IMG/VR virus record: IMGVR_UViG_2895663684_000002
Reading direction: 5' to 3' (one strand)
Length of the DNA stretch: 64,000 nt
DNA from: a virus
Numbering within the stretch: position 1 is the stretch's first letter; every line of letters starts with the position of its first letter. The notes beneath the pieces are model-generated. The model did not search any database, had not been told where the DNA came from, and worked only from the letters and a program-made list of their open reading frames with translations. Shown here piece after piece: positions 18,346 to 62,862 of the stretch. A program made the translations under genes and the position numbers.

Positions 18346-18738
18346 CTATTTAATCCATTCATCTAGTACATTTATAGTTTTGGATAAATCTGAGTGACGT
18401 CTTTTAATATAGTTATAGCTGTAATTCAATTCATAGGCGATACCTTCTAGTGTCATTCCCTCGATATACTTTTTCCTTAATATCTCTTGGTCAATTCCAT
18501 TAAAGGTATAAACAAGTTTAATTAATGTTTCTCGTTGTTCTTTTTCATATTTTAAATTACTTTCTAATTTAGCAATGACTTCTTCAACCTGAGCGCCTTT
18601 TGATTCTGCAGTAAGTCTGACATGAGATAAGTCTCCACCAGTCCATCTCTTTAGTTCATTTTTTGTTTTATCAATTTGATATTCAAGATATTTTATTCGA
18701 TCTTCAAGTTGTTGGTAATCTTTTAGCCACTCATACAA
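18346..18738 (-). CDS. RinA/ArpU-like late transcriptional activator
   Basis: C-terminal sigma-4-like HTH (ILRKKYIEGMTLEGIAYELNYSY); end of early operon. Confidence 0.8.
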   Translation of the reverse strand: MYEWLKDYQQLEDRIKYLEYQIDKTKNELKRWTGGDLSHVRLTAESKGAQVEEVIAKLESNLKYEKEQRETLIKLVYTFNGIDQEILRKKYIEGMTLEGIAYELNYSYNYIKRRHSDLSKTINVLDEWIK

Positions 18739-29038: not shown

Positions 29039-29298
29039 ATATCTAAATGCCAATAATTAGATTCAAAGAATATTTGCTTAAATCCATTCATACAATATGA
29101 TTCTTTTATCTTTTCTTTTAATTTTCTTTTTTCAGCCATAGCACTATTGGATCCACCAACGTTTCCAAATCGTTTTAGAAATCTGATTTTAAACTCAGAA
29201 TAGTTATCCGCTGTAAATGATAATATAGTCGGTGCGTTTAACAGTCGGCTACCTGCTGTAATTTTTAACGTGTACATATTTTCTTCACCTCCCTTCAT
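29023..29298 (-). CDS. Hypothetical early protein (probable start MYTLK)
   Basis: GGAGGTG RBS before the internal ATG. Confidence 0.6.
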   Translation of the reverse strand: MKGGEENMYTLKITAGSRLLNAPTILSFTADNYSEFKIRFLKRFGNVGGSNSAMAEKRKLKEKIKESYCMNGFKQIFFESNYWHLDIKKTN

Positions 29299-29459
29299 AA
29301 TTCTTCAATCCGATTCATTAAGTCTTGATGCATCATGCTTGCGTAACTATCTTCTGGATAAGCTGTAGATAAATCGTTTGCTATTAATTCCAAACGTTTC
29401 TTATTTGCTCTTGCTTCATTGATACGTTTCTTAAAAGTGCTGATATCACTCACTGTCAT
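29295..29459 (-). CDS. Small 54-aa early protein, not in ORF track
   Basis: MTVSDISTFKKRINEARANKKRLELIANDLSTAY...RIEEL*; GAGGG RBS. Confidence 0.6.
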   Translation of the reverse strand: MTVSDISTFKKRINEARANKKRLELIANDLSTAYPEDSYASMMHQDLMNRIEEL

Positions 29460-29481
29460 TGGTCATTCCCTCTTTCTTAAT

Positions 29482-29499
29482 TAATACCGCCCAGTATTA
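29482..29499 (-). promoter_or_regulatory. Hairpin with TGGGCG loop downstream of the xis-like gene
   Basis: Minus strand TAATAC-TGGGCG-GTATTA; the same 14-mer occurs in the integrase leader. Confidence 0.45.
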
Positions 29500-29503
29500 T
29501 TTT

Positions 29504-29797
29504 TTAATTCCATTCAGAAATTACTTTAATAATTTCGTCTCTTAAATATCGTTTCTCTTTACCGAATGATAATTCAGTCAACCAGTAAGGTTTGCGACCA
29601 TTAGGACGTACTCTCTTAAATGGTTTGATTCGTGTATCATCCAAAATATTATCTTCCAAATACTGTTCATCCATATCCGTCATCTTACAAAGGGTTTCTT
29701 TATTCACTGAAATGTAATCAATTGGATCAAGTAATTCTTTAATCGTATCTTGAATGACTGATTTTATTTCTTTCTCGTTTGCTGTGACTTGAAACAT
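29504..29797 (-). CDS. Excisionase-like winged-HTH protein (DUF771-like)
   Basis: VNKETLCKMTDM...ILDD.RIK...GRKPYW pattern; directly after cro. Confidence 0.55.
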   Translation of the reverse strand: MFQVTANEKEIKSVIQDTIKELLDPIDYISVNKETLCKMTDMDEQYLEDNILDDTRIKPFKRVRPNGRKPYWLTELSFGKEKRYLRDEIIKVISEWN

Positions 29798-29814
29798 TGT
29801 TAATCACCTCCACA

Positions 29815-30006
29815 TCATCTTATTTTGTAATACTCAATAAGTGCTGTTAGTGTTTCATGAGCTTTCTTACTTTGATTCTTTCCTGTTAGATAATCATTTA
29901 AGTCTTGTTTATTAACATTGAAATAAGTAGCTACACTGATAAGTGAAATCCCCTTATTATCAAAATAATTACGAATCTTCTCTCTCGCTGTACTTGTATC
30001 TGGCAC
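29815..30006 (-). CDS. Cro-like HTH regulator
   Basis: 63-aa HTH (ISLISVATYFNVNKQDLNDYLTG), divergent from the repressor; AGGAGG RBS, GTG start. Confidence 0.75.
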   Translation of the reverse strand: MPDTSTAREKIRNYFDNKGISLISVATYFNVNKQDLNDYLTGKNQSKKAHETLTALIEYYKIR

Positions 30007-30282
30007 AATTAAGACCTCCTTTTTTATAATTTGTAAGTTAATTTAATAGAATTCAACAATTTTGTTGACTTGAATTATAAAATACGATACTATTAATACA
30101 TAGTTAATAAGCCTAATGCATTAACCTTTTAATTACGTTGGGGAACGTTTTAAGGTCTATTTAGTCGCTTTTTTTCTATCAAATTAACTTACACGATTAG
30201 TATATTATAAAATAAGATACTTGTAAAGTGTTTTGTTGTAAAATACGATACTTATTTTGTAAGATATTAGGAGAATGCTGAT
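30007..30282. promoter_or_regulatory. Genetic switch: three promoters, three operator-like repeats, structured leader
   Basis: TAAAATA(C/A)GATACT at 30078, 30208, 30239. Promoters: TTGACT-17-TACTAT (+, 30065-30093), TTTACA-17-TATACT (-, 30227-30199), TTGTAA-18-TAAGAT (+, 30236-30265). 20-bp inverted repeat 30032-30051/30174-30193. Confidence 0.7.
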
Positions 30283-30597
30283 ATGTCGCTGTTAGAACGA
30301 GTAAAATTTTTAGCTAATAAACAAAAAATATCTCTAAAAGAACTAGCTTTAAAATTAGGAATGGGTGAAAGTGCAATTTACAAATGGGACAAAAGTGCTC
30401 CTTCAACTGACAATCTAAAAAAAGTTGCTGATTACTTTGGAGTTTCTACTGACTACTTGTTAGGCAGAGACGAACCAGAAATAATTGAGGATGAAAAATT
30501 AAAAGTTATTGCATCGCATATAGATGATGATGTGACTGAAGATGATATGGAAGAAATATTAAACTTTATTGAATTTATTAAAAGTAAAAATAAGTAG
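30283..30597 (+). CDS. CI-like Xre repressor (ImmR-type, no S24 domain)
   Basis: HTH_3 pattern SLKELALKLGMGESAIYKW...KKVADYFGVSTDYLLG. Confidence 0.9.
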   Translation: MSLLERVKFLANKQKISLKELALKLGMGESAIYKWDKSAPSTDNLKKVADYFGVSTDYLLGRDEPEIIEDEKLKVIASHIDDDVTEDDMEEILNFIEFIKSKNK

Positions 30598-30599
30598 GT

Positions 30600-31067
30600 G
30601 TGTGGATGAATCGATTAGAAAAAATAGTAGATGATAATCAACATTTGGATTTCAAATTTAACACTTCTATGAATAGTAAGCATGGTGCTTTTATTTACGG
30701 AAATAATGTTTACGTTAATTCAAAACGTGGATATAAACAAAATATAGCTGATATTGCTGAAGAAGTCGGTCATGATAAAACATCAGTTGGTGATCTATCT
30801 TGTTTAAATACTATTGAAAAATGCCAACAAGAAGCACGTGCTAGACAATGGGGTTACAGATACTTAGTCCCATTAGATGATTTAATCGTATGTTATAAGC
30901 TGGGGTTGCGTGAGTATTGGGAGGTTGCAGAATTTTTAGAAATACCACCTGCTTATTTATGGGAAACAATTAATTATTACCGCGATACAAAAGGATTAGT
31001 ATTTTACTATAAAGACTGCCAATTTGTCTTTGGAAGGTCAGATAGTTTAAAAATTTATTTTAATTAA
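30600..31067 (+). CDS. ImmA/IrrE-family metalloprotease (anti-repressor)
   Basis: AEEVGH zinc-site variant and QEARARQWG motif; adjacent to the repressor. Confidence 0.85.
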   Translation: MWMNRLEKIVDDNQHLDFKFNTSMNSKHGAFIYGNNVYVNSKRGYKQNIADIAEEVGHDKTSVGDLSCLNTIEKCQQEARARQWGYRYLVPLDDLIVCYKLGLREYWEVAEFLEIPPAYLWETINYYRDTKGLVFYYKDCQFVFGRSDSLKIYFN

Positions 31068-31079
31068 AAGGAGATTGTA

Positions 31080-31775
31080 ATGAAAAATAAAAAAATTACT
31101 ATTATAAGTTTAATTGGTATTTTATTAGTTGGTGGTTCTACATTTTACGCTTTTAATAAAGCTCAAGAAACAAATAGAGAAAAAACAGAATTAGCACAAA
31201 ATAAAATTGATAAAGCTAATAAAAAGAAACAGAATAAAATTTTAGCTGAAAAGAAAAAGTTAGAAGTTGAAAAGAAAAAACTTGAAGATGAACAGAAAGC
31301 TAAACAAGGAGAGCTAGATCTTTTAAAAGCTGAAAATAAATCAACTGAAAGTATCCAAGAAGAGTCAGACTCAAAAGAAAATTCTGCTAATGAATCTGAA
31401 ATAAGCACAGTTAATGACAATACAGTAGATAACACAGATGTTGGAAAAGAAACTATTAATGATATTCCTCAAAGAAAAGGACCTATTGTGTCAGATTCAA
31501 CCACTGTAGATGATTCACAATCAGTAATAAAAGAAATTGAAAACTACTATAACTTAAAAAGAACTGAAACAATAAATAAAAAAAGAAATCAAGTAATGCA
31601 GTGGAAAATAAATGGTGAAGTAAATTGGAGTGATGAGTTAATTAATTCCTCACTCCAGGACTTTGAAAATTCACTACCGACTATCACTTCTTATCGTGCA
31701 GAAACATTAGAGTATGCAAAAGTCTTAATCGACAAAGCCTTTGATGATAGTTATAACTATATGTTAAATAAATAA
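31080..31775 (+). CDS. Membrane-anchored extracytoplasmic protein (superinfection-exclusion candidate)
   Basis: Basic N-terminus + TM, coiled coil, S/E/D-rich linker, helical C-terminal domain; between immA and int. Confidence 0.6.
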   Translation: MKNKKITIISLIGILLVGGSTFYAFNKAQETNREKTELAQNKIDKANKKKQNKILAEKKKLEVEKKKLEDEQKAKQGELDLLKAENKSTESIQEESDSKENSANESEISTVNDNTVDNTDVGKETINDIPQRKGPIVSDSTTVDDSQSVIKEIENYYNLKRTETINKKRNQVMQWKINGEVNWSDELINSSLQDFENSLPTITSYRAETLEYAKVLIDKAFDDSYNYMLNK

Positions 31776-31815
31776 TTACAACCAATTGAAAGGATGTGGT
31801 TCTACCTACACCCCA

Positions 31816-31849
31816 CTCGTTTAATATACCGCCCAGTATAGAATGAGGG
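31816..31849 (+). promoter_or_regulatory. Integrase leader hairpin sequestering the RBS
   Basis: CTCGTTT-AA-TATAC-CGCCCA-GTATA-GAATGAG; right arm overlaps the TGAGGG SD ahead of ATG 31856. Confidence 0.5.
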
Positions 31850-33007
31850 ATGAACATGACAAAATTAATAGCTTCAAAAAAATACAAATATATTTACACT
31901 TACCGCAATACTAAAAATGAAGAAAAATGGAAAATTCGTTGGACCTATTATGATATTTACGGAAAAAGAAAAGAGTTATCTCGTGAAGGTTTATCCAGTG
32001 AGAATGAAGCCTACAAACTATTATTAGAAGCACAATCAATGGTTCAACAAGGACAATCTAAGATGATTGATTATGATAATATGAAGGTTAATACGTGGAT
32101 GCAACTGTGGTATGAATCTCATTCTGAATGGAGTGAAAGTACCAAACGACAACGAGAAATGGCAATTCGTTTACAGATTAATCCATTGATAGGTGATTAC
32201 AAATTATCTAAGTTGGATAAAATCACCTATAAGCAAGTATTCATCAATAGGCTTCTGGAAGACTACAAACCATCAACGGTTAGATTACTGCATTCTTTAT
32301 TTAAAATAGCAGTCAATGAAGCAGTTGAGGATGAAATTATTAGTCGTAATAGGTTTGGTCGTATTAAGATTCCAAAACCTAATAAAAAAGTAAAACACTT
32401 AACTGCAGCTGAATTAAGTACTTTTATAAGCACTGCTAAACGTATTGAGAACTTAACGAATTATGTATGTGTTTTGGTACTTGCTTATTCTGGTATACGA
32501 CGTGGTGAACTATTAGGTTTACAATGGGAAAATATTGATTTTAGTAACAATCAAATTACTATCAATTCTACTCGTGATAACAAAGGAAACCGTAAACCAA
32601 AAACAGATAACTCTTACCGTACTGTATTAATGGATAGTCAGATAATGGATGAACTGAAAAAATATAAATTATGGTGCCAAAAGAAACATTTATCTTTTGG
32701 TCTTAAATTTAAAGAATCTAACTTTGTTTTTATATCTGATCAAAAAGGTACACCTATAGCAGATAATACAATGATGTATTCATTTCGTAGAATTGTTAAA
32801 CATTGTGATTTAGACAATGTTCATCCTCATATGATGAGACATACACATGCGACCTTACTTTTAGAATCAAATAATCGACCAAGTATCAACTCGGTTGCAG
32901 AACGTTTAGGATGTACTCCAGAAATGATAATGAATGTTTACGCTCATGTACTAGAATCGATGCATCAAGAATTGGTATCAGCTTTTAGCAGTTCAATCGC
33001 ATTGTGA
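31850..33007 (+). CDS. int: Tyrosine integrase (probable true start 31856)
   Basis: Arm-binding N-terminus, SAM-like domain, SGIRRGE, K, HMMRHTHAT, RLG and YAH catalytic residues. Confidence 0.95.
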   Translation: MNMTKLIASKKYKYIYTYRNTKNEEKWKIRWTYYDIYGKRKELSREGLSSENEAYKLLLEAQSMVQQGQSKMIDYDNMKVNTWMQLWYESHSEWSESTKRQREMAIRLQINPLIGDYKLSKLDKITYKQVFINRLLEDYKPSTVRLLHSLFKIAVNEAVEDEIISRNRFGRIKIPKPNKKVKHLTAAELSTFISTAKRIENLTNYVCVLVLAYSGIRRGELLGLQWENIDFSNNQITINSTRDNKGNRKPKTDNSYRTVLMDSQIMDELKKYKLWCQKKHLSFGLKFKESNFVFISDQKGTPIADNTMMYSFRRIVKHCDLDNVHPHMMRHTHATLLLESNNRPSINSVAERLGCTPEMIMNVYAHVLESMHQELVSAFSSSIAL

Positions 33008-33254
33008 GGAACTCTGTGGGGATAAAAATATAAAACACCTATAATCATTGATATAACAGACTTTTGACGTTGAATAAAATTCTACAACCGTTAATTGAAT
33101 TAGCTCATGTAGAGTGATGTCAAAAGTCGTCAAATCCTTATTATAAAAGGGTTTGATGGCTTTTTGCTTTTTATTTATAAAGTGTAGAAAAGTATTAAAA
33201 AGTATTAGTTTGTGGGGATATTTGTGAGGGAAATACAAAATAATGTGGCGGTAT
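33003..33254. other. attP-like region
   Basis: Between int and lysin. Arm-like direct repeats TGTG(A/G)GG(A/G) at 33003, 33015, 33211, 33223 and TGTGGCGG at 33244; 10-bp inverted repeat GACTTTTGAC (33059-33068)/GTCAAAAGTC (33119-33128). Confidence 0.7.
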
Positions 33255-33272
33255 ATTAAATACATAATCAAA

Positions 33273-33312
33273 AAAAATAAGCCCTACTCGATTAAGAGTA
33301 AGGCTTATTTTT
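33273..33312. terminator. Bidirectional terminator at the end of the lysis cassette
   Basis: AAAAATAAGCC-CTACTC-GATTAA-GAGTA-AGGCTTATTTTT. Confidence 0.75.
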
Positions 33313-34117
33313 AATATTTAAGAACTTGACCTGGATAGATTAAGTTTGGATTGCTAATCCCATTTGAATTAACAAGATGTTGGGTGCTGACACCTAAGTT
33401 TTGAGCGATGATACTTAAAACATCACCAGATTTAACTGTATATGATCCACCTGTTGAGTTACCACTACCAGATACTTGCAAAACTTGTCCTGGATAAATC
33501 AAGTTTGGATTACTGATATTGTTCATACTAGCAAGTTGACTTGTGGCCATTCCAAACTTTTGAGCAATTAAACTTAATGCATCGCCTGATTGGACGGTAT
33601 AAGTTCCATTTGATGGTTGAGGTGTGGGCTGTGGTGCTGGTGCTGGACTTCCACCTAATACTTCTGTATCCCAAGCAGTCAAACTGTTTGCGTTGATTGT
33701 TGACATGATTTTGCCTACATAGTTTGGGTCTGTGGCATAGCCAGCACGCCAGATAGCTGTAATTTGTGCGTTAGGGTCTTTTAGTCCCAAAGCTCCATCA
33801 TAACGATTAGGTTTGTTTCCATAGTTAGTCAAAAAACCGCCGTAGTCTAAAATAGATGTATTCCAGTTCGGATACACTCGGAAGCTATCTACAATGCCGA
33901 TAGGCGTTTTGCCATCGTAATATTCTGTGGTTGGCAATGAAACGCCGGCGCCTTTAATACCGAATAGATTATTGTATTTCGATGCTAGTGAACTACTTCC
34001 CCATCCACTTTCAAGCGCTGCTTGCGCTGCTGCAACACTTGGCAAAATACCGTACAATTTCCATAAAGATAAACACCCTGGTTTGATTTGATTTAAAAAA
34101 TTAGTTGCATTACTCAT
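33311..34117 (-). CDS. Endolysin: GH73 glucosaminidase + Pro-rich linker + 2 LysM
   Basis: AQAALESGWG, NNLFGIK and GYATDPNY motifs; two YTV.SGD.LS.IA...N.I.NPNLIYPGQVL repeats. Confidence 0.93.
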   Translation of the reverse strand: MSNATNFLNQIKPGCLSLWKLYGILPSVAAAQAALESGWGSSSLASKYNNLFGIKGAGVSLPTTEYYDGKTPIGIVDSFRVYPNWNTSILDYGGFLTNYGNKPNRYDGALGLKDPNAQITAIWRAGYATDPNYVGKIMSTINANSLTAWDTEVLGGSPAPAPQPTPQPSNGTYTVQSGDALSLIAQKFGMATSQLASMNNISNPNLIYPGQVLQVSGSGNSTGGSYTVKSGDVLSIIAQNLGVSTQHLVNSNGISNPNLIYPGQVLKY

Positions 34118-62818: not shown

Positions 62819-62862
62819 TGGTCATTCCCTCTTTCTTAATTAATACCGCCCAGTATTATTTT

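Follow-up and report, generated by a model that had tools for sequence, protein, structure and literature searches.

Matching sequences in the xis-like transcript, the integrase leader and the attP arm of temperate Bacilli phages point to a possible RNA-pairing switch for integrase translation

The locus and its repeated sequence

To our knowledge, the timing of integrase expression in temperate phages of Gram-positive bacteria is poorly understood, with little described beyond lambda (cII/pI, sib) and a few protein cases (KplE1). In such phages the integrase gene (int) is the last of the lysogeny operon and well separated from xis. Here we analyze a 64-kb window (the whole stretch of DNA examined) of the IMG/VR virus record IMGVR_UViG_2895663684_000002, in which a 14-nt sequence, ATACCGCCCAGTAT, is shared by the gap behind a xis-like gene (site A) and the 5' leader of int (site B). 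The window is a 33,359-bp unit repeated 1.92 times, with 0 mismatches at that period, and the unit is circular contig C2 within a four-contig, 2.8-Mb genome. Because the assembly keeps a separate contig, both ends of which (33095/33096) hold an 18-bp att core, the window phage is an excised or extrachromosomal temperate phage in the sequenced strain. The genes and features between the early lytic operon and int are as follows.

29295-29459, minus strand: 54-amino-acid (aa) open reading frame (ORF), the next lytic ORF
29460-29503, minus strand: gap holding site A, including the Shine-Dalgarno sequence (SD, 29468-29472) of the 29295-29459 ORF
29482-29499, minus strand: site A, lytic-RNA hairpin with the G-rich loop UGGGCG, the exact complement of the site B apical hairpin
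29504-29797, minus strand: Xis-like 97-aa protein with a predicted MerR/excisionase-type winged helix, second early lytic gene
29815-30006, minus strand: Cro-like helix-turn-helix protein, 63 aa, first early lytic gene
30283-30597, plus strand: cI-like gene
30600-31067, plus strand: ImmA-like protease
31080-31775, plus strand: 231-aa protein (orf231) without assigned function
31776-31855, plus strand: int 5' leader
31816-31849, plus strand: site B, leader hairpin containing the 14-mer at 31826-31839
31856-33007, plus strand: tyrosine integrase (Int), 383 aa

The 14-mer is exact at 29484-29497 and 31826-31839, on the plus strand in both cases, 7 nt past the stop codon of the minus-strand 97-aa gene and 16 nt ahead of the int ATG at 31856. 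The initial annotation, which had reported it from two short gaps in the same DNA orientation beside genes on opposite strands, was accurate on all these points. A further match at 62843 is the first copy over again and not independent, because the window repeats with the 33,359 period. The caveat raised at the time, that such a match can arise by chance, was fair for the 14-mer alone: this genome of 33% GC contains 26 direct and 18 inverted repeated 14-mers, numbers that speak for a chance repeat or a passive scar left by a recombination junction or gene conversion. The motif was not found in 25 other genomes of the host family, a chromosomal copy with 1 mismatch lay inside an ORF and was set aside as chance, and scans of IMG/VR for the 14-mer gave random single matches only. 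Near and distant searches of the window region against phage-collection DNA found nothing.

We place the int start at 31856 because the ATG at 31850 reads ATA in a 97%-identical relative. Neither a terminator nor a plus-strand promoter was detected within the leader gap 31776-31855, so int is probably co-transcribed with cI-immA-orf231. The cI/cro intergenic region holds a 14-nt direct repeat of its own, TAAAATACGATACT at 30078-30091 and 30239-30252; these copies are probably repressor operators, unrelated to the 14-mer motif.

Co-occurrence and turnover of the sites in relatives

We compared Int homologues and their contigs, Psychrobacillus phage Spoks, and genomes sampled blind through the Xis-like protein. 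In at least 14 prophages and phages from several Bacilli families, the longest same-orientation match to the int leader sits in the gap after the Xis-like gene: besides the window, these are L143 (13/14 nt), L144 (20 nt), L146 (25/26 nt), L150 (12 nt plus wobble-compatible positions), G019 (19 nt), Spoks (15 nt), L284 (13 nt), L285 (14 nt), L311 (14 nt), L312 (27 nt), L313 (12 nt), L314 (18/19 nt) and L324 (15 nt). The A-B matches thus span 12-27 nt, against 9-11 nt for the second-best matches. Among the loci compared, the pattern holds in each one that combines a related Int with a homologous second early gene of 85-97 aa. It recurs in 13 of 21 IMG/VR proviruses of one subfamily, and all four strong hits of the blind sampling with Int within 9 kb were positive. 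No motif pair was found in SEsuP-1, in the B. mycoides island L281, in L151 or behind weaker Xis-like matches; the Int-based genome scans yielded mostly distant relatives.

At least ten distinct motif sequences were recovered, each matched inside its own phage. Stem variants include ATAC/GTAT, TAGTC/GACTA, GCGT/ACGC and GCTT/AAGC, and in every variant the loop is C-rich on the int-sense strand. In L342, L346 and L350, which belong to the IMG/VR provirus subfamily, a U-A stem pair has changed to C-G on both sides of the hairpin, concordantly at sites A and B. Interior differences between matched sites are G.U-compatible in five of seven cases, the exceptions being L143 (C.U) and L146 (C.A).

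The closest relative of the window phage is L143, with 97% identity in Int, 99% in the Xis-like protein and 89% in the Cro-like protein. Between sites A and B, however, L143 (1873-3640, corresponding to window 30283-31775) encodes a different cI (44% identity) and ImmA, plus a DUF4352 protein. From this comparison, an immunity/exclusion cassette has been exchanged in L143, and the xis-A and B-int-att modules have stayed together. We also considered cI as the protein that binds the motif, which is unlikely given its 44% identity between two phages that share the motif; the Cro-like protein, at 89%, may still be the binder.

These comparisons bear directly on chance and on a passive scar. Because the same positions are matched with at least ten different sequences across relatives, it is the comparison of relatives, and not the 14-mer alone, that rules out chance as the source of the A/B matching. 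The same two or three positions are involved in at least 14 phages, both sites persist in L143 although the immunity module between them was swapped, and Int identities of 32-58% among the relatives exclude descent from one recent clone. A chance repeat or scar is accordingly very improbable, and even all readings other than those discussed below, these two included, are together improbable. The co-occurrence and covariation of the two loops, on which the initial annotation had staked its proposal, were thus clearly found.

Predicted folding and pairing of the leader

With RNAfold, both hairpins fold as had been described from the sequence. The minimum free energy structure of the leader pairs 31816-31822 with 31841-31847 in a lower stem and 31825-31829 with 31836-31840 in an apical stem, which encloses the C-rich loop 31830-31835. 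The lower stem clamps the int SD (GAGGG, 31845-31849), whose unpaired probability is 0.01. All 14 leaders gave the same arrangement, with the shared segment as the apical hairpin and the int SD held by a pyrimidine-rich strand from further upstream; the unpaired probability of the SD ranges from 0.01 to 0.41. The complement appears as an apical hairpin in all 14 site A RNAs, and the distance from the motif end to the start codon is constant at 16-22 nt. The start called for L146 int, TTG 8001, is too near the SD, and ATG 8007 fits better.

In cofolding, the cognate A-RNA raises SD exposure to 0.72-0.85, which bears out in silico the earlier claim that the lytic RNA would free the int SD. Cognate duplexes are the most stable, except among close kin. 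When 8,290 windows on both strands were compared, the site A lytic RNA proved to be the best hybridisation partner of the leader (-33.6 kcal/mol, z = -6). In the window the A-leader complementarity reaches beyond the 14-mer, and the extended duplex covers the SD at 29468-29472 of the ORF that follows site A. The A-B match of L144, L146 and L312 takes in the anti-SD strand. Matched lengths of 19-30 nt (27 in L312, 28 for B/C in G019, 30 in L152, site C being described below) exceed a typical protein site, and the A-B and B-C matches extend in different directions.

Two further features of the leader were observed. A strong SD-like box, GAAAGGATGTGG at 31789-31800 and AAAGGAGGTGAT in many relatives, is kept 45-55 nt upstream of the int start, with equivalents in L143, L144, L150, Spoks, L282, L284, L324 and L332-L345. 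No conserved ORF lies behind it (one codon in L144), and an upstream ORF was therefore rejected as its explanation; the box might serve ribosomes as a standby site, or the anti-SD strand as an alternative pairing partner. On the minus strand, a promoter-like match (TTGTCA-16-TATACT, 10/12, window 31862..31835) has the 3' stem of site B as its -10 box; if active, it would give a cis-antisense RNA over the 5' half of the leader.

A third, inverted site in the attP arm

The initial annotation saw two sites and missed a third, which lies inverted in the attP arm at 33247-33260 and alters the model. The features downstream of int are these.

33008-33310: attP region
33002 and 33222, plus strand: arm-type repeats TTGTGAGG, G-rich, on both sides of the core
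33015 and 33211, plus strand: arm-type repeats TGTGGGGATA, G-rich, on both sides of the core
33078-33095: att core, 18 bp, 3' end of host rpsD
33122-33175, plus strand: T1, strong terminator-like hairpin (33122-33164) and T-run, between the core and site C
33247-33260, plus strand: site C, inverted 14-nt copy (reverse complement) of leader 31820-31833, beyond the att core
33273-33312: T2, bidirectional terminator, for lysin (minus) and for int-sense transcripts just past site C
33311-34117, minus strand: endolysin

The core is assigned to 33078-33095 because three boundaries coincide there: the contig ends, the overlap of two 100% chromosomal matches, and the end, at 33095, of identity with a relative's attR. 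The int-sense RNA of site C has complementarity to the leader across its 5' flank, its 5' stem and its loop. Since site A has the same DNA orientation as site B but lies within the opposite transcription unit, and site C is always inverted on the int-sense strand, the RNAs of A and C are both antisense to the leader. The C-RNA raises SD exposure to 0.92 in the window and 0.78 in Spoks. Rfam gave no covariance-model match at sites A, B or C, and only sub-threshold terminator-like hits at T2.

An inverted copy in the attP arm occurs in five lineages, namely the window, G019, L152, Spoks and the provirus G770, and in G019, L152 and G770 it lies at the far prophage end. The 10-mer core of G019 occurs exactly three times in 2.5 Mb, at sites A, B and C; its site C is inverted, 38 kb away at the other prophage end, following three G-rich arm repeats and an A-rich spacer, and matches over 28 nt with two differences, both G.U-compatible. 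In L152, a remnant, the B/C match is 30 nt with one G.U-compatible difference. Site C of Spoks (11 nt) lies about 245 nt past int, after the arm repeats and just ahead of a clean int-sense terminator, and that of G770 (11 nt) likewise follows the arm repeats. Latilactobacillus phage TMW 1.706 P2 carries a tentative 13-nt copy, and a candidate in G766 was rejected as a coding-like chance match. The generality of site C is thus supported in part only.

The G-rich repeats, which span 33002-33229 and have equivalents in G019, L152, Spoks and G770, are probably the Int arm sites and distinct from the motif. Because the att arms have this repeat family of their own, the motif itself was rejected as an arm-type integrase site; it occurs on one arm only, its other copies being 1.2 and 3.6 kb away. 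Three further observations concern the attachment region. The sequence AAAAGTATTA has only two exact copies in the genome, head to tail with a 10-bp period at 33188-33207, between T1 and the arm repeats; the pair is a candidate set of boxes for a recombination directionality factor (RDF) or a host factor. A perfect 10-bp inverted repeat, GACTTTTGAC at 33059-33068 and GTCAAAAGTC at 33119-33128, brackets the att core and forms possible core-type Int sites, its right arm lying also in T1. Finally, a chromosomal element of about 17 kb at the rpsD attB (L012; G000:C1:1956500-1976400) includes ORFs of structural type on one strand but lacks an integrase. At both ends it has the same core, next to arms of 70-80 bp that are 100% identical to the window attP (junctions at L012 ~1293-1390 and ~18476-18563), and may be a defective prophage or satellite that possibly depends on the Int of the window phage.

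RNA pairing could also have a negative or mutual effect, the leader/A or leader/C duplex being a substrate for RNase III. Either the abundant lysogenic transcript would silence leaky xis-operon RNA together with the gene after site A, or the A and C RNAs would destroy int mRNA in a sib-like down-regulation. Predicted duplexes of 19-30 bp would suit this, as would the position of the duplex, over the SD or start of the next gene past site A; that gene is of the Rha/AntA type (antirepressor) in Spoks and L150. Site C lies beyond attP, as lambda sib is generally known to do, and read-through from rpsD could transcribe it in lysogens. The gene after site A varies, however, and in the window, L144, L146 and G019 encodes 51-60-aa proteins without assigned function; the window duplex is perfect over 14 bp only; and the strand targeted is the anti-SD, which alone predicts release of the SD. 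We hold a negative or mutual effect to be quite unlikely.

The Xis-like protein and the possibility of DNA boxes

A homologous Xis-like protein of 85-97 aa is encoded in every motif-bearing phage. The structure model of the 97-aa protein (pLDDT 79.7) resembles MerR domains and four excisionases weakly, with Z of 3.8-5.2 (TorI and Pukovnik Xis 4.7, GIsul2 Xis 4.1, Tn916 Xis 3.8). Foldseek returned only E > 0.2, and searches of Pfam and PHROG assigned no function, with DUF771 at E 0.058 in one family member. The label 'xis-like', taken over from the initial annotation, is plausible from the MerR/excisionase-type winged helix of the model, but the Z scores of about 4-5 are weak.

Such a protein, homologous wherever the motif occurs and encoded next to site A, suggests that the sites might be double-stranded DNA (dsDNA) boxes for a phage DNA-binding protein, most likely the Xis-like protein acting as RDF and regulator and co-evolving with its sites. 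It would bind site C to direct excision, site B to regulate int, and site A after its own gene. P2 Cox and P4 Vis are RDFs that also regulate int. For KplE1, regulation of intS by the RDF TorI is established (PMC2951348). The palindromic form of sites A and B recalls dimer operators, and the spacing between site C and the last arm-type repeat is fixed at about 14 nt in the window, G019, Spoks and G770. Boxes of this kind would nevertheless be unusual in several respects: each locus has one copy and not a tandem array of helically phased boxes; site C lacks the second half of the palindrome and is found beyond the arm sites, 150-180 bp away from the core; and the identities, which are 19-30 nt long, have no internal repeats and extend differently in the A-B and B-C pairs, are longer than the footprint of a monomer or dimer. 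DNA binding would also leave unexplained the C-rich bias of the int-sense loop, and site B is part of the SD-clamping helix, with constant spacing to the start codon and no recognisable promoter. In the window, the tandem AAAAGTATTA pair looks better as an RDF box. We consider dsDNA boxes rather unlikely.

A proposed RNA-pairing switch

Taken together, functional RNA pairing of one form or another is rather probable, and we put the chance that sites A, B and C form an RNA complementarity system that controls integrase translation by SD release (activation) in temperate Bacilli phages at about one in two. From the observed sites, their conservation and covariation and the predicted folds, we infer that the interaction occurs as RNA, that its sign is activation, and when site C would be transcribed.

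In the proposed mechanism, int mRNA, probably read through from the cI operon, would be poorly translated by default, its SD being clamped by the anti-SD strand in the lower stem of the leader. The early lytic RNA would carry the G-rich-loop hairpin of site A, complementary to the apical hairpin of the leader and in several phages also to the anti-SD. Loop-loop contact followed by extension of the duplex would withdraw the 5' strand from the clamp and release the SD, and Int would then be made only while the cro-xis operon is on, that is, for excision. The int-sense RNA of site C bears the same anti-clamp sequence and would be joined to int only while attP is intact, so that it could supply Int for integration; after integration, site C would lie at the other prophage end, downstream of rpsD. 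A two-input switch of this kind, widespread in Bacilli prophages, in which the SD is freed by the xis-transcript hairpin on induction and excision or by the segment joined across intact attP on infection and integration, is possible but doubtful.

RNA pairing is favoured because the transcribed strands of A and C are both antisense to the leader; because site B forms part of an SD clamp whose spacing from the start codon is fixed, with no detectable promoter; because identities of 27-30 nt lack internal repeats and differ in the direction of their extension; because the strand bias of the loop is constant; and because stem pairs change in step at both sites and most interior differences (five of seven) tolerate G.U pairing.

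A number of observations weigh against the switch. All comparative results are also predicted by co-evolving DNA sites; a protein with a predicted DNA-binding-type winged helix is encoded beside site A, and site C adjoins the arm repeats. L143, the closest relative, and L146 carry uncompensated non-wobble differences, and the G.U bias is not significant among transitions alone. Occlusion of the int SD is not exceptional, lying in the lowest 10-15% of 48 translation-initiation regions in the genome. Non-cognate A-RNAs also raise SD exposure, to 0.22-0.66, and the C-RNA of G019 hardly frees the SD (0.29). Short exact patterns did not find site C in G629, G653 or G604, which are possibly truncated (no attL could be identified in G653 or G629), nor was it found in seven of eight IMG/VR provirus records, whose ends are possibly trimmed. 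T1, which probably terminates rpsD in the lysogen, would stop most int transcripts ahead of site C; lying between the core and site C, it means that read-through may be the sole source of site C RNA, starting either from int when the DNA is circular or from rpsD in the lysogen. No T1-like terminator is evident ahead of site C in Spoks, and the search for plus-strand promoters gave none, either for int or for a small RNA made separately from site C.

The switch put forward in the initial annotation therefore draws support from covariation, folds and SD release in silico, and is held back by a covariation that dsDNA sites predict equally and by an uncompensated loop change in the closest relative. 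On sequence comparison and prediction it is the best-supported reading, not a proven one.

Related systems and implications

Anti-antisense activation of translation is known from DsrA/rpoS, S. aureus RNAIII/hla and GlmZ/glmS. As there, the leader's own fold is predicted to hide the SD, here in 14 phages, and a trans RNA would target the occluding strand. The activator would differ in being an intergenic hairpin in a divergent phage mRNA, plus a copy across attP, and not a dedicated small RNA, and the target would be an integrase.

In lambda, sib is an RNase III hairpin at the int 3' end with a negative effect. Site C (33247-33260) resembles it in lying downstream of int past attP, so that integration separates site and gene and Int expression would sense the integrated state. 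Unlike sib, site C has no long hairpin of its own; its match is to the 5' leader, its predicted effect is to uncover the SD, and in the window T1 intervenes.

Immunity in P4 (CI RNA with seqA/seqC) and in P1 and P7 (c4 RNA) relies on a processed small RNA that controls early or antirepressor transcription or translation. These systems share with the present one several short complementary sites per phage, whose sequences diverge between relatives and are matched within each; here, by contrast, it is the int leader that is conserved as the target, and a promoter for a separate small RNA is not evident.

Integrative and conjugative elements show att-spanning transcription that depends on the circular or integrated state, for example from the circular-form promoter of ICEclc. 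There, too, that state changes the sequence joined to int, but the promoter arrives upstream of int, whereas here a complementary RNA segment would arrive downstream.

In KplE1, IntS and the RDF TorI regulate intS as proteins that bind dsDNA at a promoter overlapping attL (PMC2951348). Integrase expression is likewise tied to the excision machinery, and the TorI fold resembles the Xis-like protein (weak Z); in the present phages, however, the site is part of a leader that clamps the SD, and the copies matched to it are kilobases distant. In the literature searched, no case was found of RNA connecting xis transcripts with int leaders and attP, and there is an even chance that the three-site system is an undescribed RNA-pairing switch for integrase translation.

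Should the sites turn out to be boxes for a protein, they would reveal which DNA is recognised by an RDF family that is so far uncharacterised and occurs in about 5% of the sampled Bacilli genomes. If a conserved, sequence-addressable RNA contact does connect the int leader with the xis transcript and the attP arm, this would explain the joint supply of Int and Xis on induction, and perhaps also the silencing of Int once the phage has integrated. The natural variants, at least ten in number, are short and modular and may be orthogonal, and as such offer a potential set of RNA-controlled recombinase switches. Were the two-input form to hold, Int would be made exactly when recombination is wanted and would stay silent in the stable lysogen.

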